IMG/VR virus record: IMGVR_UViG_3300030330_006222
DNA from: an uncultured virus (IMG/VR IMGVR_UViG_3300030330_006222)
Lineage: Duplodnaviria > Heunggongvirae > Uroviricota > Caudoviricetes
DNA: 20,000 nt
Reading direction: 5' to 3' (one strand)
Positions within the stretch are counted from its first letter, which is position 1, and every line of letters begins with the position of its first letter. The notes under the pieces were generated by a model. That model made no database searches, had not been told where the DNA came from, and worked only from the letters and a program-made list of their open reading frames with translations. Positions 1 through 17,094 of this stretch are shown one piece after another. The translations under genes were made by a program, and so were the position numbers.

Positions 1-507
1 TAATATGTTATGCTTAGAAACCTCATTAGCTAATTGCTTGGTCAGTCCTATAATTCCATATTTACTAGAGGTGTAGTGTACACCGCTTACGATGCTTTTG
101 TTACGACCGGCAATTGAAGACACGTTTACTATTCTGCCATACTTCTGCTGTTTCATTAGATTTACTGCTTCTTTGCAAATAACAAAAAACGATTTTAAGT
201 TTACATCCATCAAGCGGTCCCATTCAGCGATTTCAATGTTTTCAATGGGCTCACAAAGGTTTGTGCCAGCAACATTGATAACAAAATCCACATCATCTAG
301 CTTGGAGAAGATAAACTTTATGTCTTCAACGTTGGACAAGTCACACTTAAGATCTCTTACCAGGTGCAAATCTGCAGATGTTCTTGAGGCGTTATATACA
401 ATAGCACCAGCAGAAGCAAACTGACGGCATATTTCTTTGCCTATTCCCTTGCTTCCGCCAAAAACTAATACTACCTTTCCTAAAAAGTTAAAGGTTATAT
501 CACTCAT
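1..507 (-). CDS. Classical short-chain dehydrogenase/reductase (SDR, FabG-like); 3' end runs off the window
   Basis: Not in the ORF track; translated by hand from ATG at 507: MSDITFNFLGKVVLVFGGSKGIGKEIC...VINVAGTN...GRIVNVSSIAG...HYTSSKYGIIGLTKQLANEV. It has the GxxxGIG Rossmann motif, an NxAG motif, the catalytic Ser and YxxxK. Confidence 0.93.
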   Translation of the reverse strand, partial: MSDITFNFLGKVVLVFGGSKGIGKEICRQFASAGAIVYNASRTSADLHLVRDLKCDLSNVEDIKFIFSKLDDVDFVINVAGTNLCEPIENIEIAEWDRLMDVNLKSFFVICKEAVNLMKQQKYGRIVNVSSIAGRNKSIVSGVHYTSSKYGIIGLTKQLANEVSKHNIL

Positions 508-931
508 CTTCGTATACATGATTCACATCTGGTCTTGTTATCGCGTATCTAACACCGGGACCGTCACCAACGCACTTAATGTGATGCCATGTATTTTTAG
601 GAACCACAATAATATCATTCTTCTTGACACGTTGGGTTCCTATACCTTCAATCCACCATTCCCACTCACCATCTAGAATGACCCAGTTTTCATCTGCATC
701 AGGATGGAAGTGTTTACGGTTGCCTTCGCCAGGATGTTGTTGGATGACAACACCACCAAACAGCTCATTATAAGCAATTCTTACCGCCCAAGAGCCCATG
801 CCAAGATCTTCACGAAGATCACGCAAATTGACTGTTGAACAGTTCTCATATTTTACTAGCTCTGAATGTCCTACACCATCGTTTTTGAGGACATTAACAA
901 GATCGCTGTCTGAGTTAGTTTTTATTCCCAT
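500..931 (-). CDS. Cupin-domain protein (Cupin_2-like)
   Basis: 143 aa with cupin motif 1 PGEGNRKHFHPDADENWVILDGE and motif 2 DIIVVPKNTWHHIKC. Overlaps both neighbours. Confidence 0.88.
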   Translation of the reverse strand: MGIKTNSDSDLVNVLKNDGVGHSELVKYENCSTVNLRDLREDLGMGSWAVRIAYNELFGGVVIQQHPGEGNRKHFHPDADENWVILDGEWEWWIEGIGTQRVKKNDIIVVPKNTWHHIKCVGDGPGVRYAITRPDVNHVYEDE

Positions 932-2826
932 TATCTTGTCTCGTTTTTAAATTTTGGTAACAAAATGAAATCTTTGATACGCTTTGATACACTAGTAGAA
1001 TTTAACATACTAAGTACCGGTTTGTCAAGTTTAAATCTCTTATCTTTTAATAAAACATTCTTACAATGCATCATCTGTGAAAGCTGATCATGTAACACTC
1101 TATCAGGTCCGTTTGGTGTCCCTGAAGGACCGTACGTATCTGTGTATTGTTTGTTGTATTTGCCTTCATCTGATTGTGGAACTCCGCCGCTGTAGAAATC
1201 CAAACCAAACACGGCTAACTCTTTAATTGGATAGCCTAATAACATATTTAATGCACCGTAACCAGAATTAAAGTTTGCTGAATATACTGTGTATACTCCC
1301 TTATCAAATTTTTCAATGTGTTGCTTTGCATAGATTTCCCAATACAATGCCCATCGATCCCAGGTAGAATCTTCATTTTTAAGATGCACGAACGGCACAT
1401 TTAATTCAGCGAACTTTGATTCATATACCTCATCTACCATAGCCCATGTGCCATCTGGCTTCATTTGGCTGGCTGTATCGTTACAAATAACAAACTTAGG
1501 TCTCTGTTCTTCTGGTAATGATTGTATGTGTTCAACAACCGGGGGTCCATAATTAGAATTTAAACAGCTTTGAATAATATCAGTTCTAGTCCCATAGTCT
1601 TCTTCATTTGGAATGCCGTGCTGTATGCGCACTACAACGTCATATGAATCAATTAACTCACCCTGACCAAGTCCTTTCATGTATGGTGCCGGACCTACAA
1701 ACGCCACCTTTTTATCTTTGAGATACTCACTTAGTTGCTCATCAGTGCTAAAATTTTTCATAAACAAGGCTTCAGGTGTGATTCTTTGAAACTGATCTAC
1801 ACATTCTGAAGTCGTTAACTTTCTGCAATTTTCTATTGTATTGTTAATGCGTTCTGTAATTTCTATCCATGGATTAGTCGTTGTTTTTAAATCAGAATAC
1901 TTGATTGTGGAGAGCATCTCGTTTATTATTTGTTCATTTTCAGAATTTATGTCAGACATTTGTTTTCTAACACTAACTTCTATATTATTAAACCATTCAT
2001 GCTCCAAATCAAAGAAAAGTTCTATTGTTTCACGATTAAAATAATCCTTTATGTGATGATCGCTAACTGGGACCAATTTATTATCCAGTGCTATTTTTTG
2101 AAATACTGATTTTATCAACATAGAATTATATTTTTGAGACTCATTGGTGGCGTATCTATCAATGGTAGCGACTTTCTTAAACGCTGGACGAATCCACTTC
2201 CACATCTCATTCATTCTGTAATCGTTCCAGGCGCCGTCTAGGTTGTGGGGTGCTTCCATATCAGTGTTTCCGTTGTCGTAGACCATTTTGTGACTACAAA
2301 CAACGTGCCTTAAAAACGGTATTTCTAAAATATTAAACAAATGACAAGCTTCAACGCCACCACCAAAATTAGTAATCATTGGAAAAAACCATTTCATTAG
2401 CGAGTGGTGGATAACCTTCATGCCACAATGAGTAAATGGAAGCACAGAGGCGTCTTTACTGTCACGATAGTCAGTATTCGCAGCATAGGGAGTGGTCATA
2501 CCATTGCCAGGATAGTAAGTCAACACAGCGGGATTAAATTTATTTAAATCCTCAAGAATCTGTTCTTTTACTCCTAAGTCTCGTAATGGTCTAAAGTTGT
2601 AATCATAATCCACAAACGCATAATACTCATACTGTTGTGGCACCATCGCAGCCAAAATATTTCTGGTATCGGTCCACGTAGTATTTGGGCAATATTTAAG
2701 AGCATCTTTGTTAGGTCCATCGTGAGTAACAAAGTAAAAATCACACTCTTCTTGTTTTGAAAAGTATTCAATATGCTTAGGATTGGGAGTTAAAGGCGTA
2801 ACTTGCAATACGCAAAACTTCTTCAC
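931..2826 (-). CDS. Two-domain glycosyltransferase: N-terminal putative GT-A domain plus C-terminal GT29 (sialyltransferase-like) domain
   Basis: Likely GTG start at 2826 (GTGA overlap with the gmd stop; the track starts at 2841). The N-terminal part has FYFVTHD, WTDTRN and a DxD motif in YAFVDYDY. The C-terminal part has sialylmotif-L-like KKVAFVGPAPYMKGLGQGELIDSYDVVVRI...DYGTRTD, motif-S-like NSGYGALNMLL...LAVFGLDFY, and a late His (LHDQ). Confidence 0.72.
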   Translation of the reverse strand: MKKFCVLQVTPLTPNPKHIEYFSKQEECDFYFVTHDGPNKDALKYCPNTTWTDTRNILAAMVPQQYEYYAFVDYDYNFRPLRDLGVKEQILEDLNKFNPAVLTYYPGNGMTTPYAANTDYRDSKDASVLPFTHCGMKVIHHSLMKWFFPMITNFGGGVEACHLFNILEIPFLRHVVCSHKMVYDNGNTDMEAPHNLDGAWNDYRMNEMWKWIRPAFKKVATIDRYATNESQKYNSMLIKSVFQKIALDNKLVPVSDHHIKDYFNRETIELFFDLEHEWFNNIEVSVRKQMSDINSENEQIINEMLSTIKYSDLKTTTNPWIEITERINNTIENCRKLTTSECVDQFQRITPEALFMKNFSTDEQLSEYLKDKKVAFVGPAPYMKGLGQGELIDSYDVVVRIQHGIPNEEDYGTRTDIIQSCLNSNYGPPVVEHIQSLPEEQRPKFVICNDTASQMKPDGTWAMVDEVYESKFAELNVPFVHLKNEDSTWDRWALYWEIYAKQHIEKFDKGVYTVYSANFNSGYGALNMLLGYPIKELAVFGLDFYSGGVPQSDEGKYNKQYTDTYGPSGTPNGPDRVLHDQLSQMMHCKNVLLKDKRFKLDKPVLSMLNSTSVSKRIKDFILLPKFKNETR

Positions 2827-3794
2827 AGTTCGCGCTCCCATCTCTCAATCATTTCATCCAGCATGGAACTAAAGGTGTATTCTGGCTCCCACCCAAGCAC
2901 CTTACGCGACTTTGAAGAATCACCTTTAAGGTACTTAAGCTCTTCTGGGCGCATATATTTAGGGTTTTGAACAATATAATCTCTATAGTCCATATCGAGC
3001 TTAGAGAACACTTGCTCACACAAGTCTCTAACGGAGTGTGTTTCGCCTGTTGCTACAATAAACTCGTCCGGCTCATCGTGGTTAATAATCATATGCATTG
3101 CGCGGACGTAGTCCTTGGAGTGACCCCAATCACGGTAAGAATCCATATTTCCTAATTCCAGCTTATCTTGTAATCCTTTCTTAATTGATACCGCGCCCTT
3201 CACCACCTTATTGGTGACGAAGTTGGAGCCGCGTCGAGGAGATTCGTGATTGAACAAGATACCGTTGCAAGCATGCAGCTTGTAAGCGTGTCTATAGTGC
3301 CTCACAAGGTTATATCCCATCACTTTAGCACAACCATAAGGGCTGACAGGGTTCATCGGTGTAGTAAGCCTCTGCACACCATCATCGTCCACAGAATTAC
3401 CAAACATCTCCGAAGAGCTAGCTTGGTAGAATTTAGCGTTTGGCACCAGAGTGCGATAAACCTCTAACATATTCAATACACCCAAAGCATTTGTTTGGAT
3501 TGTAAATGAAGGCATATCAAAACTAACTCTAACATGACTCATAGCACCAAGATTGTAGATCTCGTCTGGTTGTACCTCTTGAGTGATTCTTACCAAAGAT
3601 GGATAATCAAGAAGGTCTCCGTAGTGAGTGTGAACGTGCTCATTCAAACCAAGCTTATCGAGACGGTGGTTTTGGTTTTCTGCAACTGAATGTCTGCGTA
3701 CAATTCCGTGTACTTCATATCCTAGCGATAATAAGTGCTCTGATAAGTAACTTCCGTCTTGTCCGGCAATACCAGTTATAAGTGCCTTTTTCAT
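2823..3794 (-). CDS. gmd: GDP-mannose 4,6-dehydratase
   Basis: KKALITGIAGQDGSYLSEHLL, YNLGAMSHVRVSF, FYQASSSEMFG, SPYGCAK, GILFNHESPRRG..FVT.K and RDWGH are diagnostic GMD motifs. Confidence 0.97.
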   Translation of the reverse strand: MKKALITGIAGQDGSYLSEHLLSLGYEVHGIVRRHSVAENQNHRLDKLGLNEHVHTHYGDLLDYPSLVRITQEVQPDEIYNLGAMSHVRVSFDMPSFTIQTNALGVLNMLEVYRTLVPNAKFYQASSSEMFGNSVDDDGVQRLTTPMNPVSPYGCAKVMGYNLVRHYRHAYKLHACNGILFNHESPRRGSNFVTNKVVKGAVSIKKGLQDKLELGNMDSYRDWGHSKDYVRAMHMIINHDEPDEFIVATGETHSVRDLCEQVFSKLDMDYRDYIVQNPKYMRPEELKYLKGDSSKSRKVLGWEPEYTFSSMLDEMIERWEREL

Positions 3795-4381
3795 TTAAAA
3801 ATCTCCATTTGTGTTAAGTCTGGCCAGTCTTCTACTGTCCATTTTGTTGGTTTAGTGGCGATTGCAGTCTGTAATTTTTCTAAACCAAGTTGCGCTGTTT
3901 CAGGTGTCATATAATAATGATACCCAACAGAAGAAATATTCTGCTCGCGCCAAGGTACATCAGGTAGTCTACCATCATACGACATTTTTTTCAAGCGTAA
4001 AGCTGCTTCTTTATTATCAGTAAGGATCATTCCACCTCGTCCCAAACTAAGATGCTTGCGAAATTGAAAACTTAAGCACATGAAAGTGTTTGGAATATAA
4101 GAATCTTTTTCCCACAAAACTGCGGCATCTATAATATTTGAGTCACCAAGGTAATAATAATCTTGCCAAGTCTCATCGCGCCAACTAAAATCTATGTTTA
4201 GTTTCTGTGCTAAAAATGGAACCGATATGTACGTTCTTTTTGGAGTCGAGAACTTTTGTATTTTCTGGTCTCTTAGACACAATTCTAAAGCATGTGTGCA
4301 GCAATCAACTGCCACACCGTAAGGAGAACCAAAGAAGTTCGCTATTTGATTTTCAAATTCATTTATAACTTCAAAACTCAT
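3791..4381 (-). CDS. DegT/DnrJ/EryC1/StrS-family PLP-dependent aminotransferase-like protein, short form (196 aa)
   Basis: FENQIANFFGSPYGVAVDCCTHALELCL, IIDAA, SFQFRKHLSLGRGGMILT (PLP lysine context) and GYHYYMT...AQLGL. Confidence 0.85.
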   Translation of the reverse strand: MSFEVINEFENQIANFFGSPYGVAVDCCTHALELCLRDQKIQKFSTPKRTYISVPFLAQKLNIDFSWRDETWQDYYYLGDSNIIDAAVLWEKDSYIPNTFMCLSFQFRKHLSLGRGGMILTDNKEAALRLKKMSYDGRLPDVPWREQNISSVGYHYYMTPETAQLGLEKLQTAIATKPTKWTVEDWPDLTQMEIFK

Positions 4382-4922
4382 TTTTCAAACACTCCACATT
4401 AAGACTGACCAAAACACCATTTTCTTTATCCATGTGTGGGATATATGCTTGCGAGTGATCATCAAATTTAGCATGCTCAGTATCTCTCCAATCATAGTAT
4501 TGTATATTGCAAAAGTCTAGACTGGCTAGTAAACTAGCTAGGCTTCTGAAATCGTATGTAGTCTTGTGATAAATGGTTTCATTATCCATTGGCATCCTAC
4601 CATATAGCGGACCAAGTATGTTTTCTAACTTAATTTTCTTATCTAAATAAAGTTGCGCTAATACAGGAAAATTTGGCACCGCCAACCGCAACACTCCGTA
4701 CGGTTTTAAAGCGCGCTTCCATTCTTTTAGCAGAGGAATAACCTCTTCGCGATCAAAATATTCTATTACATGTGAGGCATATATGATATCAACTGAATTA
4801 TCCTCGAACTGACTTAGGTCCGTTATGTCACGATAGTCTAAATGTTCATAATCACCACCATCAATGTGAACCCAATCATTACCAAAGTTACGCCAGCCGC
4901 AGCCAATATTGATTTTAATCAT
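4371..4922 (-). CDS. Class I SAM-dependent methyltransferase (Methyltransf_11-like)
   Basis: Likely ATG at 4922 (MIKINIGCG). Motifs NIGCG, FEDNSVDIIYASHVIEYF and EWKRALKPYGVLRLAVP. Confidence 0.85.
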   Translation of the reverse strand: MIKINIGCGWRNFGNDWVHIDGGDYEHLDYRDITDLSQFEDNSVDIIYASHVIEYFDREEVIPLLKEWKRALKPYGVLRLAVPNFPVLAQLYLDKKIKLENILGPLYGRMPMDNETIYHKTTYDFRSLASLLASLDFCNIQYYDWRDTEHAKFDDHSQAYIPHMDKENGVLVSLNVECLKNEF

Positions 4923-5334
4923 CAATAAACTCCTTGTCACTGGCTTGTCCGTAATAAGGACCAGTCTTGTATTCTAAAACCAAAGTGTTATCTTCAAGAA
5001 TTACATAATTATGACCACCGAATAATGTGATCGATAAGTCGCCAGTCTCTAATATTCTTCTTTCTACAATAGTGTCATCAAGATCGTAAAATATAGCCTC
5101 CACTCTACCGTTCATCACAACCCAAGATTCTTGAGCTATAGCACTTTTAGGTACAGTTTTGTAAATATGTTTGTGAGGTTTAAACGTCTTTCCCTTACTA
5201 AAATTTAAAATAGCTAACTGGAGGTATTGCTCTTCATCCACTATGTCATTTCTAACATCATTCAATTCAGCTGGTCTACAGACAATATGCAATAACTTAT
5301 CTGGTTCAACTTTAGAATATATTTTATCAAACAT
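4915..5334 (-). CDS. Cupin-fold protein (WbuC / sugar-isomerase-like)
   Basis: FKPHKH...QESWVVMNG...GDLSI...GGHNY...LEYKTGPY is a metal-binding cupin pattern typical of polysaccharide loci. Confidence 0.75.
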   Translation of the reverse strand: MFDKIYSKVEPDKLLHIVCRPAELNDVRNDIVDEEQYLQLAILNFSKGKTFKPHKHIYKTVPKSAIAQESWVVMNGRVEAIFYDLDDTIVERRILETGDLSITLFGGHNYVILEDNTLVLEYKTGPYYGQASDKEFIDD

Positions 5335-6026
5335 TATAATCCTAATGCTTTTTCAAGCGACATTCTTTTAAAACAACGCAGCGTTGTGATTGGGCTACAA
5401 TTTATAACTTGTATCCCAGCATGAGCGGCACGGTAGGCAAAGGCATTCCAAGTTGGTAAATGAAATTTGATTCCATCTGGAATATTGTATTCATCACCCT
5501 TTTGTTGGTAATCATCGAACCAATAGTTTGGATTCTTATCCGGTGTTTTTTCCATCTTAAGACCTGGACCGTCTTTCACGCATCCGTCTACAAATTCGAC
5601 GTAATTGCAATCAACTCCTAATAAAACAATCTTTTTGTATCCCAAAGCAGCTGCAGTTGAACAGGCATTTGCACCAGAGTTACCATTGTCGTGAAATTGT
5701 GCAAAATCCTTCGGAGATGAATTCCATTTGTTTGTTGTACCATATGGTAGTAAATTGACAAATTGAAATTTCTCATGGTTATCATTTATGTCTATGATAT
5801 AGAAGCACTTCTCAATTGGAGAATTGTCAATTAAATTATTAAAACTCTCGCGATGGTTTTCTGTAACTCGATAGTCATAGCAGCCGTGATATTTTGGCCA
5901 CCAATCCATTCTTTCATATGCTCTGTAAGCCGAGTTTAAACCAAAGGTATCAAACCCGTCAAGCTTGGCAAAATCAACGTCTTTCAAAGACGGACCATTG
6001 CCCATAATAACTATAGTATCACTCAT
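5334..6026 (-). CDS. Maf/DUF115 (MptE-like, Cst/GT42-related fold) putative glycosyltransferase
   Basis: IVIMGNGPSL, TFGLN, GNSGANA...ALGYKKIVLLGVDC and VINCS, the motif set of DUF115/MAF_flag10 and CMP-sugar transferases. Confidence 0.7.
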   Translation of the reverse strand: MSDTIVIMGNGPSLKDVDFAKLDGFDTFGLNSAYRAYERMDWWPKYHGCYDYRVTENHRESFNNLIDNSPIEKCFYIIDINDNHEKFQFVNLLPYGTTNKWNSSPKDFAQFHDNGNSGANACSTAAALGYKKIVLLGVDCNYVEFVDGCVKDGPGLKMEKTPDKNPNYWFDDYQQKGDEYNIPDGIKFHLPTWNAFAYRAAHAGIQVINCSPITTLRCFKRMSLEKALGL

Positions 6027-6876
6027 AATAACTCCAAAAAGCGTCTCCTCTGCTATCCATATGTTCGTAACACGACATCATTGTTTCAAACCAAGGCTCA
6101 TCCTTATGTTGAACATGCTCATTTAAAACTAACTGACATCCAAGCATTTTTGCCTCCATGACAAGTCTGGGACACGTGTCGCTTGCTTGCGGTAAGAAAA
6201 TAAGTCCTTTAGATGTGGACAGTTTAATTAATAGTTCATGATATTGTAAGCCTGAAATTAGTTCGTACTCTAGGTTATTCTCCTCGGCGTATGCAACAGC
6301 GAGGGCGCTTGGCTTTACTGGCGACACAGAATCTAAAATAAGATATTTATTGTCTTTCTCGTTATCTTTAATTGATAACATAAATCGTAAATCACCACCA
6401 CTAAACACTGAATTTAGCACTGCACAATTTTCATCTTTGAGAGCCGTAACTTTTTCAAGGATCATATTCTTTTGTTTTTCACTCATAAACCAAACTCTTT
6501 CAGCATATCCATAAAACGCAGAGTTAATTTTACCATGCATTTGTTTTTCACAGTCACAGGGCTCACCCTCAATTAACTGGTGTAATTCAAACGAACGATG
6601 TTTACAAATTTTATAATCATATTCTACGATCGAGTATGAACAGTTTTTAGCCATGTATAGTTTGATATCATCCTGTAGTTGGAAAAAGTTGCAAACTATA
6701 AAATGATGAGTGTCTTTGTTGTGGACTAAAGTTTTTTTGTCTAACTTTGCGCAATGAATCGGAGCAACATCAAAACCTCTACTAATACCATAACGCATAA
6801 TAGCGTCAGTGGTCAATTCAGCCCCACCAACGCCATCATTTATAAAAAAATCAGAGATAAAAGCAATTTTTTTCAT
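6019..6876 (-). CDS. GT-B fold (GT4-like) glycosyltransferase, compact
   Basis: N-terminal KIAFISDFF...GGAELT and C-terminal GLIFLPQASDTCPRLVMEAKMLGC (D/E-x7-E motif variant). Confidence 0.75.
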   Translation of the reverse strand: MKKIAFISDFFINDGVGGAELTTDAIMRYGISRGFDVAPIHCAKLDKKTLVHNKDTHHFIVCNFFQLQDDIKLYMAKNCSYSIVEYDYKICKHRSFELHQLIEGEPCDCEKQMHGKINSAFYGYAERVWFMSEKQKNMILEKVTALKDENCAVLNSVFSGGDLRFMLSIKDNEKDNKYLILDSVSPVKPSALAVAYAEENNLEYELISGLQYHELLIKLSTSKGLIFLPQASDTCPRLVMEAKMLGCQLVLNEHVQHKDEPWFETMMSCYEHMDSRGDAFWSYYE

Positions 6877-8141
6877 AGTAAATCATTAAGCAGATTTTCT
6901 ACTTCTTCCTGTTTCTCTTCTTCTCCCTTCAAATCTACGATACAGTTTACAAACTCTTCGTACATATTTTCAGGTGAAAATTGCTGTCTTAAATCAAGCG
7001 CTCGGCTGCAACTATTAAGTGCAATCGAGTCCTCTACATTGTTCGTAATATCATTATAACAATTTCTCATTTGTTCCTTAACCGAATGTGGTCTTGCATA
7101 TGACCAGCCAGATTCTTTTAGAATTACCCCATCCCAAACAGCAGCTTCAGGTACAGTATTGATATCAAATGCTACTTGGTAAAAATGTGGCTTGGGCGGG
7201 ATGGCATTATCATATATGAAATCGCATTGTCCGGACCAACCAACTGCTACAACAGGTAGCCCACTATAAGCAGCTTCGAAGATTGGTAATCCAAAACCCT
7301 CACCGTGCGGAATAGCGACCATGGCATGAATCTTTTCATCCTGATATAAGGAATGCATTTCTTCGTCTGACATATGTCCGTGAATTAGATAGATCTTACA
7401 CTTTCTATCATCGGCAGAAACCTGGTTAATCATATTTCTTAAATTCGCCAAACACATGTTTCTGTCCATCAAACAATTCTTCGCAATATTGGTTTTAACA
7501 ACAAGTCCAACATCTTCGTCTTTGAACTCCTCAATAAAACACTTTATTGTTGTTTCCAAGTTTTTACGAGGTCCGAGTTGGGCTACAGTTACAAAATTAA
7601 ACTTGGTCTCTAATTCAAGATTTAAGTCTGGTAAATCATCATACTGTTTAACTGGGTAATTAACTGCTGTAATATCTGCACTGTTTTCAAGTATAATTCT
7701 TTGACCGGTCGATTCATCAACACCCTCAAAGCGCGCTGCTGACAAAACATTCTTCGAATGATTAGATACAACAATTATAGAATCCATTTCATTACACTTG
7801 GCTGTCCACTCTGGGGCGCAGAGAGTAGTCTCAATTCCTGCAGTGTATCCTATGTCCCTCTTGGCTATATTCATAAACTCATTCGGAATAGTCACTTGTA
7901 AAGAGATATCGAACTGACCACCTTGTTGTACAAAGCCAACAGTCTTTTCGATTGTTTCGTCAATCCACCTTCTTTCAGGCGTATCATCAATAATCCAAGA
8001 TGTTTGTCCCCAAGTTATTGGCTTAATATAAACATCAAATAAGTCTTCGCGACTTCTAAGAGCCCTCAAAGCAAATCGAGCTTGCTCTCCATAACCACTA
8101 CGAGTCAGTATAGGTCCGACTAACAATACACTTTTTTTCAT
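6873..8141 (-). CDS. GT4-family glycosyltransferase
   Basis: ATG at 8141 with a GGAGG RBS and ATGA overlap. Motifs SGYGEQAR, PRKNLET and GEGFGLPIFEAAYSGLPVV (E-x7-E). Confidence 0.9.
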   Translation of the reverse strand: MKKSVLLVGPILTRSGYGEQARFALRALRSREDLFDVYIKPITWGQTSWIIDDTPERRWIDETIEKTVGFVQQGGQFDISLQVTIPNEFMNIAKRDIGYTAGIETTLCAPEWTAKCNEMDSIIVVSNHSKNVLSAARFEGVDESTGQRIILENSADITAVNYPVKQYDDLPDLNLELETKFNFVTVAQLGPRKNLETTIKCFIEEFKDEDVGLVVKTNIAKNCLMDRNMCLANLRNMINQVSADDRKCKIYLIHGHMSDEEMHSLYQDEKIHAMVAIPHGEGFGLPIFEAAYSGLPVVAVGWSGQCDFIYDNAIPPKPHFYQVAFDINTVPEAAVWDGVILKESGWSYARPHSVKEQMRNCYNDITNNVEDSIALNSCSRALDLRQQFSPENMYEEFVNCIVDLKGEEEKQEEVENLLNDLL

Positions 8142-9424
8142 GCGACCTCCAGTAAGTGCCATTTTTTATAATTCTTTCTAGTTTCCCAAGAACCACTTTC
8201 TTCAATAACCTTGTCCATAAACTCAACCCACTGTTTTTCATAGTTTTCAAAACTAAAGTTTTCTTTAATGTGTTGAATACCTGCTTCAGACATTTTCTTA
8301 TATTTTGTTTTTGGCTGCTTGAGTGCCTTTGTAAGCGTCTTTTCAAAATCCTTTTGGCTAATCCTATCTTCATAGATATAAGGCACCTGAAGCGAACCAA
8401 TGATGGTTTTAGAGCACGGTTGAATACCCCAGCCAAACCAATTGGTACCATCTGTAACCTGTTCTTGAAGACCACCGGTCATGTTTACAATAATGGGTGT
8501 GCCACAAGATAAAGACTCCAGGGTAGCTAAACCAAAGCCTTCCGCATCAGAAATGTTAATAGTATAGTCTGAAGCATTGTACATAATCGCTAATTGTTCA
8601 GGACCAACTTTAGTAGTGGACAATAGTACTTGTCCATGGTTAAGACCAAGATGTTCAATAATGTGCGGAAGATCTTGCCCGTGGGGGTCACGTGCATCAG
8701 TGTGCATAACTAAGGCTGCCTTATCGTGCCCAACCTTATCAAGCCACTCTTTAAACCACCAGATCAACGTTCCAGATTGTTTGCGGCGTGCATTGCGGTT
8801 GTTCCAAAAGAAAATCTTTTTCTTTGGATTTCTATTCTCTTCGTTAGCTGTGTCTATGATTTTTTGGCGAGTTGCCTTAACCGCTTCTAATTCTGGACCG
8901 TCTGTTAACGGGCGAAAAAATGTTGGATTAACAGCATGGCTGATATGAGTCCCAAAAGAATCTGGAGAACATGTCCGAACTATCTCTTCCGTTACTCTGG
9001 AAATAGATACAACATAATCAGTAGAATCATAATAAGCTTTGTTATACAGAGGTACAGGGAAGTTATCCCACACGTGATAATAAACCATCGGGACCAAAGA
9101 CCGTACTTCATCTTCAATTTCCCAAAGCCACTCATAAAAACGTGGATCAGTCATAAACCACAGTACATCTGGCTTTTCTTTTCTCAGTGCTGATCTGATA
9201 GTTTCATCATTACCATAGCCGTCTACTGGAATAATCAAAAAGTCTTTTCCATATGGATCCACAGTAATAGGGGTATAATCAGCATGCTTCATAGCACCCC
9301 CCAAACAAACAAACTGGTAACGACCAGTCTTTAACAAAGCTTCAATCATATACTTTGTTTGAGTGCCGACACCAGAGGGCGAAAGCGGGTGGTCAGATAA
9401 GACCAAAATTTTCTTTTTTGTCAT
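8138..9424 (-). CDS. GT4-family glycosyltransferase
   Basis: KILVLSDHPLSPSGVGTQT, NNRNARRK and AEGFGLATLESLSCGTPII...TGGLQEQV. Confidence 0.92.
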   Translation of the reverse strand: MTKKKILVLSDHPLSPSGVGTQTKYMIEALLKTGRYQFVCLGGAMKHADYTPITVDPYGKDFLIIPVDGYGNDETIRSALRKEKPDVLWFMTDPRFYEWLWEIEDEVRSLVPMVYYHVWDNFPVPLYNKAYYDSTDYVVSISRVTEEIVRTCSPDSFGTHISHAVNPTFFRPLTDGPELEAVKATRQKIIDTANEENRNPKKKIFFWNNRNARRKQSGTLIWWFKEWLDKVGHDKAALVMHTDARDPHGQDLPHIIEHLGLNHGQVLLSTTKVGPEQLAIMYNASDYTINISDAEGFGLATLESLSCGTPIIVNMTGGLQEQVTDGTNWFGWGIQPCSKTIIGSLQVPYIYEDRISQKDFEKTLTKALKQPKTKYKKMSEAGIQHIKENFSFENYEKQWVEFMDKVIEESGSWETRKNYKKWHLLEVA

Positions 9425-11191: not shown

Positions 11192-11220
11192 AATATAACA
11201 TACAATAAACTAATTTACAA
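11192..11220 (-). promoter_or_regulatory. Sigma70-type promoter
   Basis: TTGTAA-N17-TATATT with an extended -10 TG, followed by AAGGAG and ATG 11173. Confidence 0.6.
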
Positions 11221-12549
11221 CACTTTTGAAGCTAAAGTTGCCAATTCTGACCTTTCGCCCTTCTTAAATGTCATATGTCCCGCAATTGGATAATCTTTGA
11301 AACTCTCAACTGCGTGTGCTAGACCGTTTGATGTCTCATTAACATATACATTATCAATCTGTTCAACATCTCCAGTTAAGATTATTTTAGTGCCTTCTCC
11401 AATACGAGTAATAATTGTTTTGATTTCGTGCTTAGTAAGGTTCTGGGCTTCATCAATTACAATAAAAGCATTGGAGATAGATCGTCCACGAATATATGTC
11501 AAAGCTTCAATTTCAATTTTGCCTTTTTCCATATACATTTCAAGTGAAGTGCGGTCACCCATTAAAAATTTAAGGTTATCTTGAATAGGCATCAACCAAG
11601 GAAGCATTTTTTCTTCCATAGTGCCTGGTAAGAAACCGATATCCTTTCCAAGTGGTTGTACGGGTCTAGAAACAATTAACCTAGAGTAATGGTTTTCATC
11701 AGAACGTAAACCAATAGTCTGTTGTAATCCAGCTGCTATCGCTAATAGGGTCTTACCAGAACCAGCACGACCGACAAGTGAAACAATCTTGATATCTGGA
11801 TTCATAAGCATATCGATTGCAAATGCTTGCTCTTTATTACGTGCATCGATCTTCCAGTCTGGTATATTTTTTGTTACTACTGCTTGTAAAGGCTCATGAT
11901 GGTTTTTAAACTTTGCTAATGCCGACTTTTTCTCGTTTGCATTTGATATCATCATAACATACTGATTTGGATACATTTGTTGTTCTGCTTCATCTTCAGT
12001 AAGCATAATATCTTCGCCTGCATAAAACCTATCAATAATCTCATCATCAAACGTTTGAACTATAAATCCATTATAAAGTTCCTCAAACGAAGGGGCAGCT
12101 TTTTCAGAAATGTAGTCTTGTGCTTCTATTCCTATAGAATCACAAATAACACGCATATTGATATCGCGAGACACCATAATGGTCTTTCTATTCTCGCAAT
12201 CAGCCTGAATAGCTTTTGCAGTTGCTATAATAGCGTGATCCGGATGTCTCATATCCAAATCAGGCGGGAATATTACTTCTTTTAAAATAGCATAAGAAAC
12301 TACTTTTAATATTCCCATACCCTTTCCAATTCGAGTGCCCTTTTCTAAATTGGCTTTTTCTCTAAAGGAATCTAGGGTCCTAATAAACTGACGAGCGTTA
12401 GAACCAACTGAGTCTTGTCGTTTTTTGTGACCATCAATTTCTTCTAACACTTTCAGTGGAATAAAAATATCGTGATTATCAAATTTATAGATTACGCTAG
12501 CATCAGTTAAGCAAACACTAGTATCTAATACATAATTTTTTTTAGCCAT
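11215..12549 (-). CDS. phoH: PhoH-family ATPase with N-terminal PIN domain (PhoH2/YlaK-like)
   Basis: PIN motifs YVLDTSV, VLEEID, DHAII and SRDINMR. PhoH motifs RNKEQAFA, GRAGSGKT, IGFLPG, YIRGRS, IDEAQN, TRIGEGTK and GDVEQID. Confidence 0.95.
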   Translation of the reverse strand: MAKKNYVLDTSVCLTDASVIYKFDNHDIFIPLKVLEEIDGHKKRQDSVGSNARQFIRTLDSFREKANLEKGTRIGKGMGILKVVSYAILKEVIFPPDLDMRHPDHAIIATAKAIQADCENRKTIMVSRDINMRVICDSIGIEAQDYISEKAAPSFEELYNGFIVQTFDDEIIDRFYAGEDIMLTEDEAEQQMYPNQYVMMISNANEKKSALAKFKNHHEPLQAVVTKNIPDWKIDARNKEQAFAIDMLMNPDIKIVSLVGRAGSGKTLLAIAAGLQQTIGLRSDENHYSRLIVSRPVQPLGKDIGFLPGTMEEKMLPWLMPIQDNLKFLMGDRTSLEMYMEKGKIEIEALTYIRGRSISNAFIVIDEAQNLTKHEIKTIITRIGEGTKIILTGDVEQIDNVYVNETSNGLAHAVESFKDYPIAGHMTFKKGERSELATLASKVL

Positions 12550-12590: not shown

Positions 12591-13523
12591 CTAAATTGTG
12601 TTTTCAGCTAGCAGATTATCACGGTATTTTAGAAGCGCAAGTTCCTTATGTTTAGCTTCAATCATAATATCAAACTCATTACCATAGTCGTTTAGTGTAT
12701 TATAAACTAGGTCTGAGTGTGCTTGTGGCTTGATCTTCGGATTGTTATGCTCAAGTGAGCGAGATTCTGCATAATGCACAACCGGCTTAATGTCTCCCCA
12801 CGTAGACAGTGCAAGCTCTAGTGCCTCTTGTTCTGATTGTCCACCGGGATGTAACATGTGATGGTGGTAATCAAATACAATTGGGATTCCAATTCGCTTG
12901 TAAACACCATCATACAATTCTTTTGTGGAGTATAACGATGTTTTGTCGTCATTCTCAACAGTTAGACGGGAGCGGACATTTTCTGGCAACCGTTCAAAGT
13001 TGCGACAGAAGTTATCTAGAGCGAATGGCTTGTCACCGTAAGCAGCACCAACATGAATATTAAGCTTAGCGTATGGTGTACGAGGCAAGCCAATGAGGTC
13101 AAACAGATCACCATGTACAGACAAATCAGTCTTAGTAAGTTGAAACACTCGTTCCTTGGGTGAAGCTAGCTTGTTAAATGGTCCAGGATGCGATGTGAGC
13201 CGCATTCCATGTTCTCGGGCAAAGTTACCCGCCTTAGCTGCCGCGGCGTGAATAGCGCCGAAATTAGGCATATCTGTGAGGTCATACTCCGATGCCCATG
13301 GGATAATATCAGAGGAAAGACGATAAAAGTAAATATCATTCTCAAGATTCCACTCAAGAATAGTGTATAGATCTCGTAGATTTTGCAATGCCAATTCGGC
13401 AGCGTACTCGATACCACGCTCAGTGAACGTGCGCTTGATCATTGTACGATTAGTTGTGATGCGTTGCGACTTTGGCAACGAAGAAAAGCCCATGTTAATA
13501 CAGGCGTAGCCCAAATGATTCAT
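12591..13523 (-). CDS. uvsE: UV-damage endonuclease UvsE/UvdE
   Basis: LGYACIN, YRLSSDIIPW, RLTSHPG, NIHVG, RLTVENDD, IVFDYHHH, HYAES, AHSD and MIEAKHKE. GGAGG RBS. Confidence 0.96.
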   Translation of the reverse strand: MNHLGYACINMGFSSLPKSQRITTNRTMIKRTFTERGIEYAAELALQNLRDLYTILEWNLENDIYFYRLSSDIIPWASEYDLTDMPNFGAIHAAAAKAGNFAREHGMRLTSHPGPFNKLASPKERVFQLTKTDLSVHGDLFDLIGLPRTPYAKLNIHVGAAYGDKPFALDNFCRNFERLPENVRSRLTVENDDKTSLYSTKELYDGVYKRIGIPIVFDYHHHMLHPGGQSEQEALELALSTWGDIKPVVHYAESRSLEHNNPKIKPQAHSDLVYNTLNDYGNEFDIMIEAKHKELALLKYRDNLLAENTI

Positions 13524-13546
13524 AATACCCTCCTACAGGTACATTA

Positions 13547-13575
13547 ATTATAACCACTCAAAGGCGATCTGTCAA
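13547..13575 (-). promoter_or_regulatory. Perfect-consensus sigma70 promoter for uvsE
   Basis: TTGACA GATCGCCTTTGAGTGGT TATAAT (17-nt spacer). Confidence 0.9.
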
Positions 13576-13820
13576 CACTTTCTAACTATTTCAAAATCAA
13601 ATACCCAGATTTTAGGCTTCTCTCCTCGTTTATAAGGAACACCTTTTTTTCGAAGTTTTTCAACTTCCTTCTGGTTAGTGATCTGAGCTTCCCACCCATC
13701 AACACCAAGTTTATGTTTTGAAGCAATGTATCGACGTCGCAACACAATACAAACATTAGGACCAGCGAACGATTTTACCAAAACTCTATCGTTCTCGGTA
13801 TATCTCTTCTTCGACTTCAT
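13572..13820 (-). CDS. Hypothetical basic protein (82 aa)
   Basis: ORF on the coding strand, Lys/Arg-rich, filling the gap between neighbours. Confidence 0.7.
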   Translation of the reverse strand: MKSKKRYTENDRVLVKSFAGPNVCIVLRRRYIASKHKLGVDGWEAQITNQKEVEKLRKKGVPYKRGEKPKIWVFDFEIVRKC

Positions 13821-13953
13821 GAATCTTATCTATAGTCTTCATAACGGAGTCAGGAATGAAAAGTACTTTCAAACAAAAGAAAGCAGCTAAAAACATAGAC
13901 ATTCCAAGTATGCACAATTCCGCAAATACTTCTAATTTTTTATCTAACCCCAT
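13786..13953 (-). CDS. Small hypothetical membrane protein (55 aa)
   Basis: Probable start is ATG 13953 (MGLDKKLEVF), because the longer track start lies inside a tRNA. Single hydrophobic segment FAELCILGMSMFLAAFFCLKVLFI. Confidence 0.6.
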   Translation of the reverse strand: MGLDKKLEVFAELCILGMSMFLAAFFCLKVLFIPDSVMKTIDKIHEVEEEIYRER

Positions 13954-13980
13954 ATTGTATATATGTGGTAAAAAATAAAA

Positions 13981-14057
13981 TGGCTGGGGCGGCTGGACTC
14001 GAACCAGCAACGGCCGGGGTAACAACCCGGTGCACCTGCCTGTGGCGCTTCACCCCA
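13981..14057 (-). tRNA. trnN: tRNA-Asn(GUU), non-canonical core, CCA encoded
   Basis: TGGGGTG AA GCGC CACAGGCAG GTGC A CCGGG TT-GTT-AC CCCGG CCGTT GCTGG TTCGAGT CCAGC CGCCCCA G CCA. All four stems pair, with U1-A72 and G73. Confidence 0.88.
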
Positions 14058-14059
14058 AT

Positions 14060-14095
14060 AAAAACCGGTTTTCTGTCTAGAACTAGGATAACCGG
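14060..14095 (-). terminator. Possible intrinsic terminator or processing hairpin just 5' of the tRNA
   Basis: CCGGTT-ATCCTAGTTCTAGACAGAA-AACCGG followed by TTTTT. The stem is interrupted. Confidence 0.4.
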
Positions 14096-14164
14096 AAACC
14101 CCTGCCTACGTGACGATCGGCAGCCACGTCCTGCTTACTGAATGCGCGAGCAGAACAGCGCGCT
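14096..14164 (-). ncRNA. Putative structured (pseudoknotted) RNA of unknown family
   Basis: GC-rich intergenic stretch. Helices GCGCG/CGCGC and GTTCTGCT/AGCAGGAC cross (H-type pseudoknot). A second crossing pair is ACGTGGC/GTCACGT and (C)TGCC/GGCA(G). Confidence 0.5.
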
Positions 14165-14644
14165 CTATGCGTCAAACGTCAACGTACCGTTTTCTGTCTC
14201 AACCGAAACGGTCCAACCTGAAATACCCCATGGGTTAACTTCTACGAAGTTTGCAAAGGGAACTTCAACTTGAGCAGTAAGCGTACAAAAGCCGCGCTTG
14301 TGGTCATACTTCTCGGTGGAGTACTCAATTAGGTCAACATCATAGAAATTTTCTGAGAGAGTTTCAGCAAGATACTCAGCAAAACTATCCGAGCCTCTTT
14401 CATAATCCTCTAGATAATCTTCCGCGCGGAGGTGCTCAATAATATTTCCGCTCCAACGATTACGCGCATCCAACTTGGTTTGTGCAATCAACGATGCAAA
14501 TTCGCTAATGACCTCAGTTTCGTTCATCGCGTCCTCAACCTCAGTCTCATTATGAACAAAGACATCAGTGCCTTCCTCATAAGTAAGTGTTATCATCGCA
14601 TCATCCGATAACTTAAGTGATTGTAGTCTTTTTACAACAGACAT
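14165..14644 (-). CDS. Hypothetical acidic protein (159 aa)
   Basis: AAGGAG RBS before ATG 14644. Lies between the two tRNA-Asn genes. Confidence 0.85.
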   Translation of the reverse strand: MSVVKRLQSLKLSDDAMITLTYEEGTDVFVHNETEVEDAMNETEVISEFASLIAQTKLDARNRWSGNIIEHLRAEDYLEDYERGSDSFAEYLAETLSENFYDVDLIEYSTEKYDHKRGFCTLTAQVEVPFANFVEVNPWGISGWTVSVETENGTLTFDA

Positions 14645-14662
14645 GTTTTCTCCTTTTTGAAA

Positions 14663-14738
14663 TGGCTGCCTCTCGCGGGCTTGAACCGCGGACCCAGCGA
14701 TTAACAGTCGCTTGCTCTACCAACTGAGCTAAGAGGCA
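14663..14738 (-). tRNA. trnN: tRNA-Asn(GUU), canonical, CCA encoded
   Basis: TGCCTCT TA GCTC AGTTGGTA GAGC A AGCGA CT-GTT-AA TCGCT GGGTC CGCGG TTCAAGC CCGCG AGAGGCA G CCA (76 nt). Confidence 0.97.
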
Positions 14739-14973
14739 ATAAGCGTTCTTCTACCCACACTACAGTTGTTCCCTCAATAGTTTCGGGGGAAACCAGGTCC
14801 AAAGGAACAATGTAACACTTTTTAATTTTAATTGGGGTTAGCCTTTTGCTTTTGCCGCCAACCCACGGAAGCACTGTATATTCGCACTCATTAGAAATGA
14901 GCGCTGTAGAGTCGGTGGGATAGAAAAAATTATTATGTCCCACTTCAGATAGGTAACACTTTGTATAACTCAT
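14701..14973 (-). CDS. Hypothetical protein (90 aa), probably leaderless; 3' end overlaps the tRNA-Asn
   Basis: ATG lies 6 nt after a -10 box. The last 38 nt are inside the tRNA and the stop TAA is in the anticodon loop. Confidence 0.55.
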   Translation of the reverse strand: MSYTKCYLSEVGHNNFFYPTDSTALISNECEYTVLPWVGGKSKRLTPIKIKKCYIVPLDLVSPETIEGTTVVWVEERLLPLSSVGRASDC

Positions 14974-14979
14974 AATAAA

Positions 14980-15008
14980 AGAATAACATTTTAAGTTTTC
15001 TTTGTCAA
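14980..15008 (-). promoter_or_regulatory. Sigma70-type promoter driving the ORF/tRNA cassette
   Basis: TTGACA AAGAAAACTTAAAATGT TATTCT, with a 17-nt spacer and extended -10 TG. Confidence 0.75.
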
Positions 15009-15012
15009 CAAA

Positions 15013-15519
15013 TTACCACAAATAATATTTCCACCTTGGTATTATTTGAGTCTTGCTTATATCTTTAAAGATATCTGATTTTGGAACTTTAGGCTTTCTT
15101 AACAACGGCATGCCGGCTTCTTCGGGTGTTTTATCGCCTTTTTTCTGATTACACTTTTTACAAGCCGTAACCAAATTAAGCCAATCATTTTTACCACCTC
15201 TAGAACGAGGAATAACATGATCAATGGTTAGTCTATCAGTTGTAAAATGCTTAGCGCAGTATTGACATTGATTACCATCACGCCATATAACATTTTTCCT
15301 ATGACATGGAATTGTCTTATAGCGAAACTTAACAATTCTCTTGAGAGCAATAACACAGGGCAGCTCAAACGTTTCGTTAACAGAATTTATTACTTCATTG
15401 TAAGTTTCAATTGTCTGTGCTTTACCAATTAAACACAACACTAAAGCTTCAATTGCATCGATTACTTCAATTGGTCTAAAAGAAGAATCTAACTTCAAAG
15501 TTTTTGTGTTGTCCATCAT
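15013..15519 (-). CDS. HNH endonuclease (McrA/HNH_5-like, Zn-binding)
   Basis: RKNVIWRDGNQCQYC, LTIDHVIPRSRGG...WLNLVTACKKCNQKKGDKTPEEAGM. Confidence 0.93.
   Translation of the reverse strand: MMDNTKTLKLDSSFRPIEVIDAIEALVLCLIGKAQTIETYNEVINSVNETFELPCVIALKRIVKFRYKTIPCHRKNVIWRDGNQCQYCAKHFTTDRLTIDHVIPRSRGGKNDWLNLVTACKKCNQKKGDKTPEEAGMPLLRKPKVPKSDIFKDISKTQIIPRWKYYLW

Positions 15520-16747: not shown

Positions 16748-17094
<347 letters not shown>

Follow-up and report, generated by a model that had tools for sequence, protein, structure and literature searches.

The window analyzed in this study, a stretch of 20,000 nucleotides from the uncultured virus IMGVR_UViG_3300030330_006222 (IMG/VR; Caudoviricetes), is a phage fragment that carries two genes for tRNA-Asn with the anticodon GUU (Table 1). 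One of them is canonical, while the other, here called the odd tRNA-Asn, has A8, C14 and G21 in its core, and A9 besides, and is devoid of the U8:A14:A21 tertiary triple of bacterial-type tRNA-Asn. ARAGORN, suggested as a check by a first-pass annotation of the sequence, calls the odd gene as tRNA-Asn(GUU), and it matches model positions 1-71 of the Rfam family RF00005 with 43.5 bits (E 1.9e-6), the gathering score of the family being 29 bits. The canonical gene, which the same annotation had placed about 600 nt away, was located by ARAGORN 606 nt upstream. It has U8, A14, A21, G15:C48, C32, 36-UAAUC-40 and U16 U17, and it belongs to a different tRNA lineage (acceptor stem starting UGCC).

The odd tRNA-Asn forms a cloverleaf with a 7-bp acceptor stem that includes U1-A72 and is followed by G73 and an encoded CCA. 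In the D-stem, G10-C13 are paired with G22-C25 (G12.U23 included), and the 9-nt D-loop begins with C14, ends with G21 and contains G18G19. C14:G21 constitutes a fifth D-stem pair, leaving an inner D-loop of 7 nt. Position 26 is A, the 5-bp anticodon stem consists of G/C pairs only, and the anticodon loop reads U32 U33 G34 U35 U36 A37 C38. The 5-nt variable loop ends with U48, the partner of A15, and the T-arm is canonical. The minimum-free-energy fold is this cloverleaf with the 5-bp D-stem including C14:G21, its energy being ordinary in comparison with shuffled sequences (z -1.39). Sequence and fold agree with the proposal of the first-pass annotation that the U8-A14-A21 triple is replaced at all three positions and the D-stem extended to 5 bp, and the elements that it described as intact (stems, G18G19, T-loop, U1-A72, G73 and CCA) are all present. 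Compared with canonical bacterial tRNA-Asn(GUU), the anticodon, G73, U1-A72, the 7/5 cloverleaf, G18G19 and the T-loop are shared, whereas A8, C14:G21 and a 9-nt D-loop replace U8, A14, A21 and a D-loop of 8 nt, and 36-UAC-38 replaces 36-UAA-38.

Table 1. Positions of the features in the window and of related tRNA genes at other loci (the latter preceded by the locus handle).
Feature	Position	Strand	Basis or remark
Odd tRNA-Asn(GUU)	13981..14057	(-)	77 nt including encoded CCA; ARAGORN, Rfam RF00005, fold, covariation
5' leader of the odd tRNA-Asn	14058..14125	(-)	hairpin, then U-run up to the tRNA 5' end; flank comparison
Very acidic, conserved 159-aa protein, function unassigned, always between the two tRNA-Asn genes	14165..14644	(-)	49 related viral loci
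Canonical tRNA-Asn(GUU)	14663..14738	(-)	ARAGORN; Rfam 65.1 bits, E 2.2e-12
Phage-encoded transfer-messenger RNA (tmRNA)	16749..17094	(-)	ARAGORN; Rfam RF00023 99 bits
UvdE UV-damage endonuclease homolog	12591-13523	(-)	PF03851, E 1.5e-58; directly downstream of the odd tRNA-Asn
PIN-PhoH fusion protein	11215-12549	(-)	
Sugar-nucleotide and glycosyltransferase block	1-9424	(-)	GDP-mannose dehydratase, DegT-type aminotransferase piece, GT4, sialyltransferase-like
Class-II-like slot tRNAs	L006:4675-4770, L007:5429-5524, L008:4677-4772, L017:4674-4765, L029:4678-4772, L030:4411-4507, L036:4572-4667, L037:4572-4667		
A8-type tRNA-Asn in tRNA arrays	L190:1469-1545, L191:1469-1545, L193:1486-1562	(-)	C14 or U14, G21, A38
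Chromosomal canonical tRNA-Asn with near-identical acceptor stem	L196:1488-1562	(-)	also L528, L529, L531

Homologs of the odd tRNA-Asn were collected from IMG/VR with a pattern in which the acceptor stem and TGTTA plus the T-loop were fixed and positions 8-31 were free, and at least 120 loci were recovered. The matches listed and the window together make up 121 instances with 79 distinct sequences, and all counts for this tRNA family are given among these. A8 is present in 30 of the 79 distinct sequences (45 of the 121 instances). All 30 have a pyrimidine at position 14 (C14:G21 in 23, U14:A21 in 5 and U14.U21 in 2), so that A8 and a pyrimidine at 14 are completely associated within the family. 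The U8 sequences (n = 48) have A14/A21 in 46 cases and C14/A21 and U14/A21 in one case each, and the one distinct sequence with C8 has A14/C21.

An alignment of A8-type tRNAs was built from 35 distinct sequences, 32 from the family and three from the tRNA arrays described below. Positions 14 and 21 are CG in 27 of them, UA in 5, UG in 1 and another combination in 2. Over the alignment, 99.3% of the cells of the cloverleaf, extra pair included, are paired, a value that none of 500 shuffles reached and that slid controls came nowhere near, and 19 of the 23 pairs have changes on both sides. The odd core positions are invariant, A8 never varying. A9 occurs only alongside U23 (13 of 13) and G46 is retained in 34 of 35 sequences, which fits an intact ladder of D-stem triples. 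The covariation of 14:21 supports the fifth D-stem pair, and the conservation of the A8/pyrimidine-14 core excludes chance and decay and points to purifying selection. The first-pass annotation had argued against random decay and had named a homolog search as the observation that could refute it; the related copies turned out to be neither all canonical nor randomly degenerate. A decaying pseudogene or a chance tRNA-like sequence could be suspected from the Rfam score, which lies below that of the neighboring gene (43.5 versus 65.1 bits). We consider the probability of this to be practically negligible and regard it as ruled out by the conservation and covariation in the homologs, and by the intactness of every conserved tRNA element. 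We have high confidence that the odd gene encodes a functional tRNA whose alternative core contains a 14:21 base pair.

A15-U48 and U32/C38 had also been attributed to the concerted change in the first-pass annotation. Both are present, but they did not change together with the core: C38 is found in all 30 A8 members but also in 36 of the 48 U8 members, and A15:U48 in 27 of 30 A8 versus 43 of 48 U8 members. Since both also occur in U8 members, they are lineage-wide traits outside the core change. The U32/C38 combination is shared by the tRNA-Asn of Streptomyces phage Rowa. The concerted change consists of positions 8, 14 and 21 plus one extra D-loop nucleotide only. In a tree based on 47 columns outside the D-arm, the A8 label is clustered, requiring 9 changes (at least 4 of them forced) versus a mean of 29 after shuffling. 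A single origin of the A8 core was considered but not retained, as the tree is poorly resolved and does not allow origins to be counted.

A likeness to the selenocysteine tRNA (tRNA-Sec), to which the first-pass annotation had pointed, proved apt. In the Aquifex aeolicus tRNA-Sec, a G14:C21:U8 triple "occupies the position" of U8:A14 (PMC3711452), and a G8:A21:U14 interaction in E. coli tRNA-Sec is cited in PMC7609411. For the odd tRNA-Asn, the covariation supports a 14:21 Watson-Crick pair within a lengthened D-stem, such as bacterial tRNA-Sec has. Nucleotide 8 of tRNA-Sec docks on the 14:21 pair in the layer of the canonical U8:A14(:A21), and by analogy A8 presumably docks there in the odd tRNA-Asn. 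Unlike tRNA-Sec, which has a 13-bp acceptor/T helix (8+5 or 9+4), a 6-bp D-stem with a 4-nt loop, a long extra arm and the anticodon UCA, the odd tRNA-Asn has 7+5 bp, a 5-bp D-stem with a 7-nt loop, a 5-nt variable loop and GUU, and it keeps the 15:48 pair. Helix lengths, D-arm, variable loop and anticodon rule out that it is itself a tRNA-Sec. A further comparison is offered by the mistranslating tRNA-ProX (tRNA-ProN, PMC10404621), which likewise combines an Asn-type anticodon with an unusual body, G21 being among its oddities. However, tRNA-ProX has C1:G72, A73, A33/A34 and the anticodon AUU, in contrast to U1-A72, G73, U33, G34 and GUU. The identity features of this mistranslator group are absent from the odd tRNA-Asn, so that membership was rejected and a mischarging identity is not indicated.

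The sequence 36-UAC-38 breaks the 36-UAA-38 motif of tRNAs decoding ANN codons (ANN decoders). According to a 2026 study on structures of the synthase for N6-threonylcarbamoyladenosine (t6A), this motif is strictly conserved in approximately 3630 bacterial ANN-decoder sequences, A38 is required for t6A for a structural reason, and TsaD reads the shape of the D-stem (PMC13276492). With C38, the odd tRNA-Asn is predicted to lack t6A at position 37 (t6A37). The identity of tRNA-Asn resides in the anticodon and G73 (PMC9976931), and the set G34 U35 U36 plus G73 is complete in the odd tRNA-Asn; U1-A72, relevant to the amidotransferase route, is there as well. Given this identity set, the odd tRNA-Asn can be expected with moderate confidence to be charged by asparaginyl-tRNA synthetase (AsnRS), and we are similarly, that is moderately, confident that it would decode AAY codons.

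Transcripts were looked for in metatranscriptome assemblies. A 338-nt contig covers positions 13984-14057 without mismatch, two further contigs extend over 14011-14060 and 14038-14265, likewise without mismatch, and a contig from a second study spans 13981-14060 with 7 differences. The contigs from the RNA libraries cover both tRNAs and a short flank only, the remainder of 13500-15100 being uncovered.

With the gene for the acidic 159-aa protein between the two tRNA genes as a synteny anchor, which does not imply any action of the protein together with the tRNA, 49 related loci were found in IMG/VR. Of these 49 loci, 28 have a canonical tRNA-Asn, belonging to the lineage of the second tRNA in the window, immediately upstream of the anchor, and 28 have a second GUU tRNA immediately downstream of it. 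This downstream slot (n = 28) is occupied by the odd form in 18 loci, by a class-II-like form in 8 and by a canonical form, which shares the acceptor stem of the odd form, in 2. The class-II-like tRNAs are 92-97 nt long and have a D-arm of the tRNA-Leu type, a long covarying variable arm and the anticodon GUU in a YUGUUUC loop with U37, where a purine would be usual, and C38, as well as U1-A72 and G73; this sister form thus has no A37 at all. Asn, Ser or no amino acid are the candidates for its identity. Since the leader of the odd tRNA-Asn in the window also precedes the class-II-like tRNA in sister phages, the slot is orthologous and its content has been exchanged. One and the same 5' leader is common to all the slot tRNAs. 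The 36-UAA-38 motif is broken in 26 of the 28 slot tRNAs by two different routes (C38 and U37), and it is kept in all 22 upstream canonical copies examined of the 28. The GUU anticodon, G73 and U1-A72 are constant across the three different slot bodies. A second, unrelated class II GUU tRNA with U37 and G73 was found at locus L470.

Loss of the motif at positions 36-38 also bears on a role outside translation, in which the odd tRNA-Asn would act as a decoy or sponge for a nuclease or a tRNA-binding factor, or as a non-ribosomal aminoacyl donor or regulator. AAY decoding would suffer from the predicted lack of t6A37, and still more from U37 in the sister form; a canonical copy that could do the decoding is frequently at hand, and tRNAs with extra-translational roles are known (PMC10404621). 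We nevertheless consider such a role quite improbable. The elements needed for charging, EF-Tu and the ribosome are all conserved, namely the acceptor stem, G73, the T-loop, G18G19, an anticodon loop of 7 nt containing U33 and, in many copies, CCA; the odd type is the only tRNA(GUU) in some phage records; and the annotation of the proteins in the window revealed no partner enzyme nearby.

The occurrence of the A8 core outside this tRNA family was examined with a pattern for GUU tRNAs with A8/Y14/R21 and free stems, applied to one genome per species in 185,579 species. Eight of the 12 matches are register shifts or 3' fragments. One of the remaining four lies on a 9,956-bp contig, syntenic with the window, in a metagenome-assembled genome (MAG) titled Candidatus Neomarinimicrobiota; the synteny and a PhoH gene with 82% identity (tblastx) identify it as a phage contig within this bin. 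The other three come from MAGs with the titles Marinicaulis, Hyphomicrobiales and Saccharibacteria, where they are located in dense arrays (11, 13 and 20 tRNA genes in a stretch of 3 kb). Two arrays are flanked by ordinary chromosomal genes and the third is on a phage-like contig, and many of the neighboring array tRNAs are likewise non-canonical. In having A8 and C14 or U14 with G21, the tRNA-Asn of the three MAG arrays link the odd tRNA-Asn to the supernumerary tRNAs of tRNA gene arrays that spread horizontally (L-arrays, PMC8421152). Unlike these copies, which have A38 and different stems, it stands outside arrays, between phage protein-coding genes. All four matching genomes also carry a canonical tRNA-Asn.

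A second scan of IMG/VR, for A8/R9/Y14/R21 with a free anticodon, gave 102 matches, 77 of which passed a cloverleaf check. Their anticodons are GUU (63), GGU (4), UCU (3), GUG (2), GUA (2), UGU (1), CAU (1) and CUA (1). An enrichment of the A8 core in ANN decoders, which have U36, seemed conceivable from 11 of 14 acceptor/anticodon combinations; since U36 was also found in 93 of 122 distinct control sequences (canonical U8/A14/A21 tRNAs of the same geometry), it was dismissed as an artefact of the pattern. Two near-identical viral contigs of about 52% G+C without synteny to the window share one A8-type body but differ in its anticodon, which is either GUG or GUA (L526:750-824 (-) and L527:1500-1574 (-)), the 3' acceptor strand of both tRNAs being one nucleotide shorter than that of the odd tRNA-Asn.

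Other phage tRNA-Asn lineages have U8 together with U14:A21 or C14.A21 (38 distinct sequences, all with A38), which shows that the 14/21 layer is plastic in phage tRNA-Asn. The nearest named tRNAs are actinophage tRNA-Asn with 72-82% identity. Of four that were aligned, three have a canonical core and that of Mycobacterium phage GenevaB15 has U8 with C14 and G21, so that a 14:21 pair can occur without A8; the tRNA-Asn of GenevaB15 and its relatives (L002:41-116) has a similar acceptor stem and a 6-nt variable region. Five viral records with lengths of 22-101 kb yielded no GUU tRNA besides the A8 type, although another copy may lie outside these records, given their estimated CheckV completeness of 12-52%. 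Literature searches yielded no description of an A8/C14:G21 tRNA-Asn, which is a weak absence as short terms such as A8 are unsearchable, and in PMC8421152 and PMC10264068 no terms on Asn, the D-loop or tertiary pairs were found.

The plasticity of the 14/21 layer is a point in favor of neutral compensated drift, in which a redundant tRNA-Asn serving codon supply moved to an equally workable core and was then kept there by purifying selection, the odd positions having no special function. Constraint would be relaxed by the canonical tRNA-Asn that adjoins the odd gene in the window and in the loci described above, other tRNAs of phages and of arrays have many non-canonical features, the enrichment of A8 that ANN decoders seemed to show disappeared on comparison with the control, and Asn codons, at 5.5% of the codons in the window, are unremarkable yet not negligible. 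On the other hand, C38 and U37 independently break a strictly conserved motif in one and the same slot while the identity marks are kept, no GUU tRNA other than the A8 type was found in the five records, and a change of three positions together with one nucleotide in length is a long path. We therefore regard drift as rather unlikely, but as the main and a serious rival to an adaptive explanation.

A precedent for an adaptive explanation comes from phage T5. AriB, the nuclease of the PARIS system, cleaves tRNA-Lys (anticodon UUU), tRNA-Thr (anticodon UGU) and tRNA-Asn (anticodon GUU) at 40/41; its target motif is U36AAU39, and U16C impairs cleavage, these determinants having been defined on E. 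coli tRNAs (PMC12409363). T5 variants of all three tRNAs together suffice to neutralize PARIS and to rescue infection, as stated in the same paper. Like the T5 anti-PARIS tRNAs, the odd tRNA-Asn is a phage copy of a species targeted by AriB. At the positions read by AriB it has UACCC together with C16 A17, compared with UAAUC and U16 U17 in its canonical neighbor. In addition, the T5 tRNA-Thr(UGU) (NC_005859 28667-28741; L202:2668-2742 (-)) carries A8 and A9, and its D-loop extends from U14 to G21. One of the PARIS-rescuing tRNAs thus shares the A8/pyrimidine-14/G21 core with the odd tRNA-Asn, so that there is a phage tRNA with this core that is functional in E. coli. By contrast, the T5 tRNA-Asn combines U8 and G1-C72 with a D-loop that extends from U14 to A21. 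A38 is retained in each of the three T5 tRNAs, in which position 39 is changed, whereas the odd tRNA-Asn has C38. Among solved structures, the analogue of the odd tRNA-Asn is tRNA-Sec, and the T5 tRNA-Thr is a sibling that seems to have been overlooked.

By analogy with the T5 tRNAs and PARIS, the explanation that we favor, with a probability of roughly 0.45, is that the odd tRNA-Asn is a charged, translating spare tRNA-Asn that is poorly read by host tRNA-directed nucleases. Of the specialised roles inferred in the first-pass annotation, which are thereby partly supported, this corresponds to the nuclease-resistant tRNA. The C14:G21 Watson-Crick pair lengthens the D-stem to 5 bp, and A8 would be docked on it in the layer of the lost triple. 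G34 U35 U36 and G73, which are read by AsnRS, would secure charging with Asn and use by the ribosome. Host factors such as AriB recognize the canonical loop and stem (U36-A-A-U39) and D-loop U16 U17, and the odd tRNA-Asn might evade them. The spare tRNA-Asn would then sustain Asn decoding during infection. Evasion of nucleases is speculative, as is the notion that the core change could offset the missing t6A37 or remove a D-loop contact. This explanation draws on four observations: bodies are swapped in one slot under constant Asn identity marks, 36-UAA-38 has been lost by two routes, tRNA-Asn is a documented target of one phage-defence nuclease, and the A8 core occurs in a T5 anti-PARIS tRNA.

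Several points weigh against an escape from nucleases. T5 escapes AriB through positions 39/41 and 16 while keeping A38, so that loss of A38 is not required. The abundance of C38 in canonical-core relatives (see above) indicates that core and loop changes are separable, and A8/C14:G21 itself is tied to no nuclease determinant. Phage tRNA-Thr(UGU) genes beside the odd tRNA-Asn keep U8 and UAA, and phage and array tRNAs often have odd features without demonstrated meaning. For these phages, the host is only hinted at and a nuclease of the host has yet to be named, and the tree cannot tell whether the A8 core arose once. Charging, modification and ribosome use are deduced from the sequence. Finally, the RNA contigs are only weakly suggestive of expression, as they lack ends and strand and may derive from DNA.

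The slot as a whole invites a broader proposal, namely that the position after the anchor is an arms-race cassette of "stealth" tRNA-Asn bodies hidden from widespread host nucleases that target ANN decoders, with an adaptive A8 core. The bodies would be a tRNA-Sec-like A8 core, a leucine-tRNA-like class II form with U37, or a canonical form. Asn marks would be kept in all of them and the 36-UAA-38/t6A37 signature destroyed in nearly all, and the A8 core would allow a tRNA without t6A to decode or would remove a D-loop contact. We consider this proposal unlikely as it stands.

Few contacts in elongator tRNAs are as conserved as U8:A14. The A8 type, of which more than 60 instances were sampled, forms a natural clade of otherwise ordinary 7/5 class I tRNAs in which this contact is replaced by a 14:21 pair and A8, and the replacement is backed by comparative data. 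It provides a test case for how much of the tRNA core and of the modification at position 37 the ribosome requires, for the joint tuning of tRNA body and anticodon loop, and for the question of whether phages vary the bodies of their tRNAs as a means of escape from tRNA-cutting immunity. The odd tRNA-Asn might also serve as a scaffold on which orthogonal or nuclease-resistant tRNAs are built.

Public runs in which the stretch occurs are labeled as marine, seawater or sponge metagenomes. Such an origin would suit the idea that A8 confers insensitivity to ultraviolet A (UVA) light. The crosslink between 4-thiouridine at position 8 (s4U8) and C13 is established, and A8 removes this photo-crosslinking site, so that the tRNA might stay chargeable in sunlit surface water. 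The UvdE gene directly downstream of the odd tRNA-Asn is circumstantial support. However, U8 is retained in other tRNAs of these phages (canonical tRNA-Asn, tRNA-Thr and tRNA-Gly), the 14:21 pair and the loop changes are left unexplained, and A8-type tRNA-Asn also occurs in the arrays of the Saccharibacteria and Hyphomicrobiales MAGs, which are unrelated to the phage group. The idea is thus very improbable. The UvdE gene is preceded by a promoter-like site at 13575-13547 (-) that matches the sigma-70 consensus at 12 of 12 positions.

A weak hint at the host comes from a chromosomal tRNA-Asn in the Candidatus Neomarinimicrobiota MAG that also contains the syntenic phage contig; the acceptor stem of this tRNA-Asn is one position off that of the odd tRNA-Asn. 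This tRNA is canonical (U8, A14, A21, UAAUCA) and its T-arm is the same as in many members of the tRNA family. A chromosomal tRNA-Asn gene with such a near-identical acceptor stem was present in 4 of 81 sampled genomes of the phylum. These data hint that the phage tRNA lineage was captured from a host of this kind, the loop having diverged afterwards and, on one branch, the core as well. Assignment of the host to Candidatus Neomarinimicrobiota-type bacteria is tentative, as it draws on one bin. A host with the indirect Asn pathway only was also considered, and rejected on finding that the four genomes encode both asnS (AsnRS) and gatB above the cut-off.

Immediately upstream of the odd tRNA-Asn, the energy of the leader hairpin is no better than that of shuffled sequences (z -0.46), and a scan of 13500-15100 for consensus promoters and terminators revealed nothing adjoining the odd tRNA-Asn and 0 terminator-like sites. 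For the 159-aa acidic protein, no Pfam or PHROGs family and no usable match in the ESM Atlas were found. Its predicted model is confident (predicted local distance difference test, pLDDT, 88.3), and comparison of the model with the PDB gave no convincing fold match (best Foldseek E-value 0.037, best VIA-align Z 4.5). The window, which has a G+C content of 34-45%, also encodes a PD-(D/E)XK nuclease and an HNH endonuclease, and the nearest match to a protein of a named phage (PhoH) is 38% identical.

The phage-encoded tmRNA is kept in the same neighborhood among the relatives. A link between an Asn-rich tmRNA tag and the two tRNA-Asn genes beside it may or may not exist. The tag of the window tmRNA was probably called too long, and its end reads ...ANNNEHFDAVALAA. 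In the relatives, the tags called by ARAGORN begin with ANNN, which corresponds to three Asn codons.

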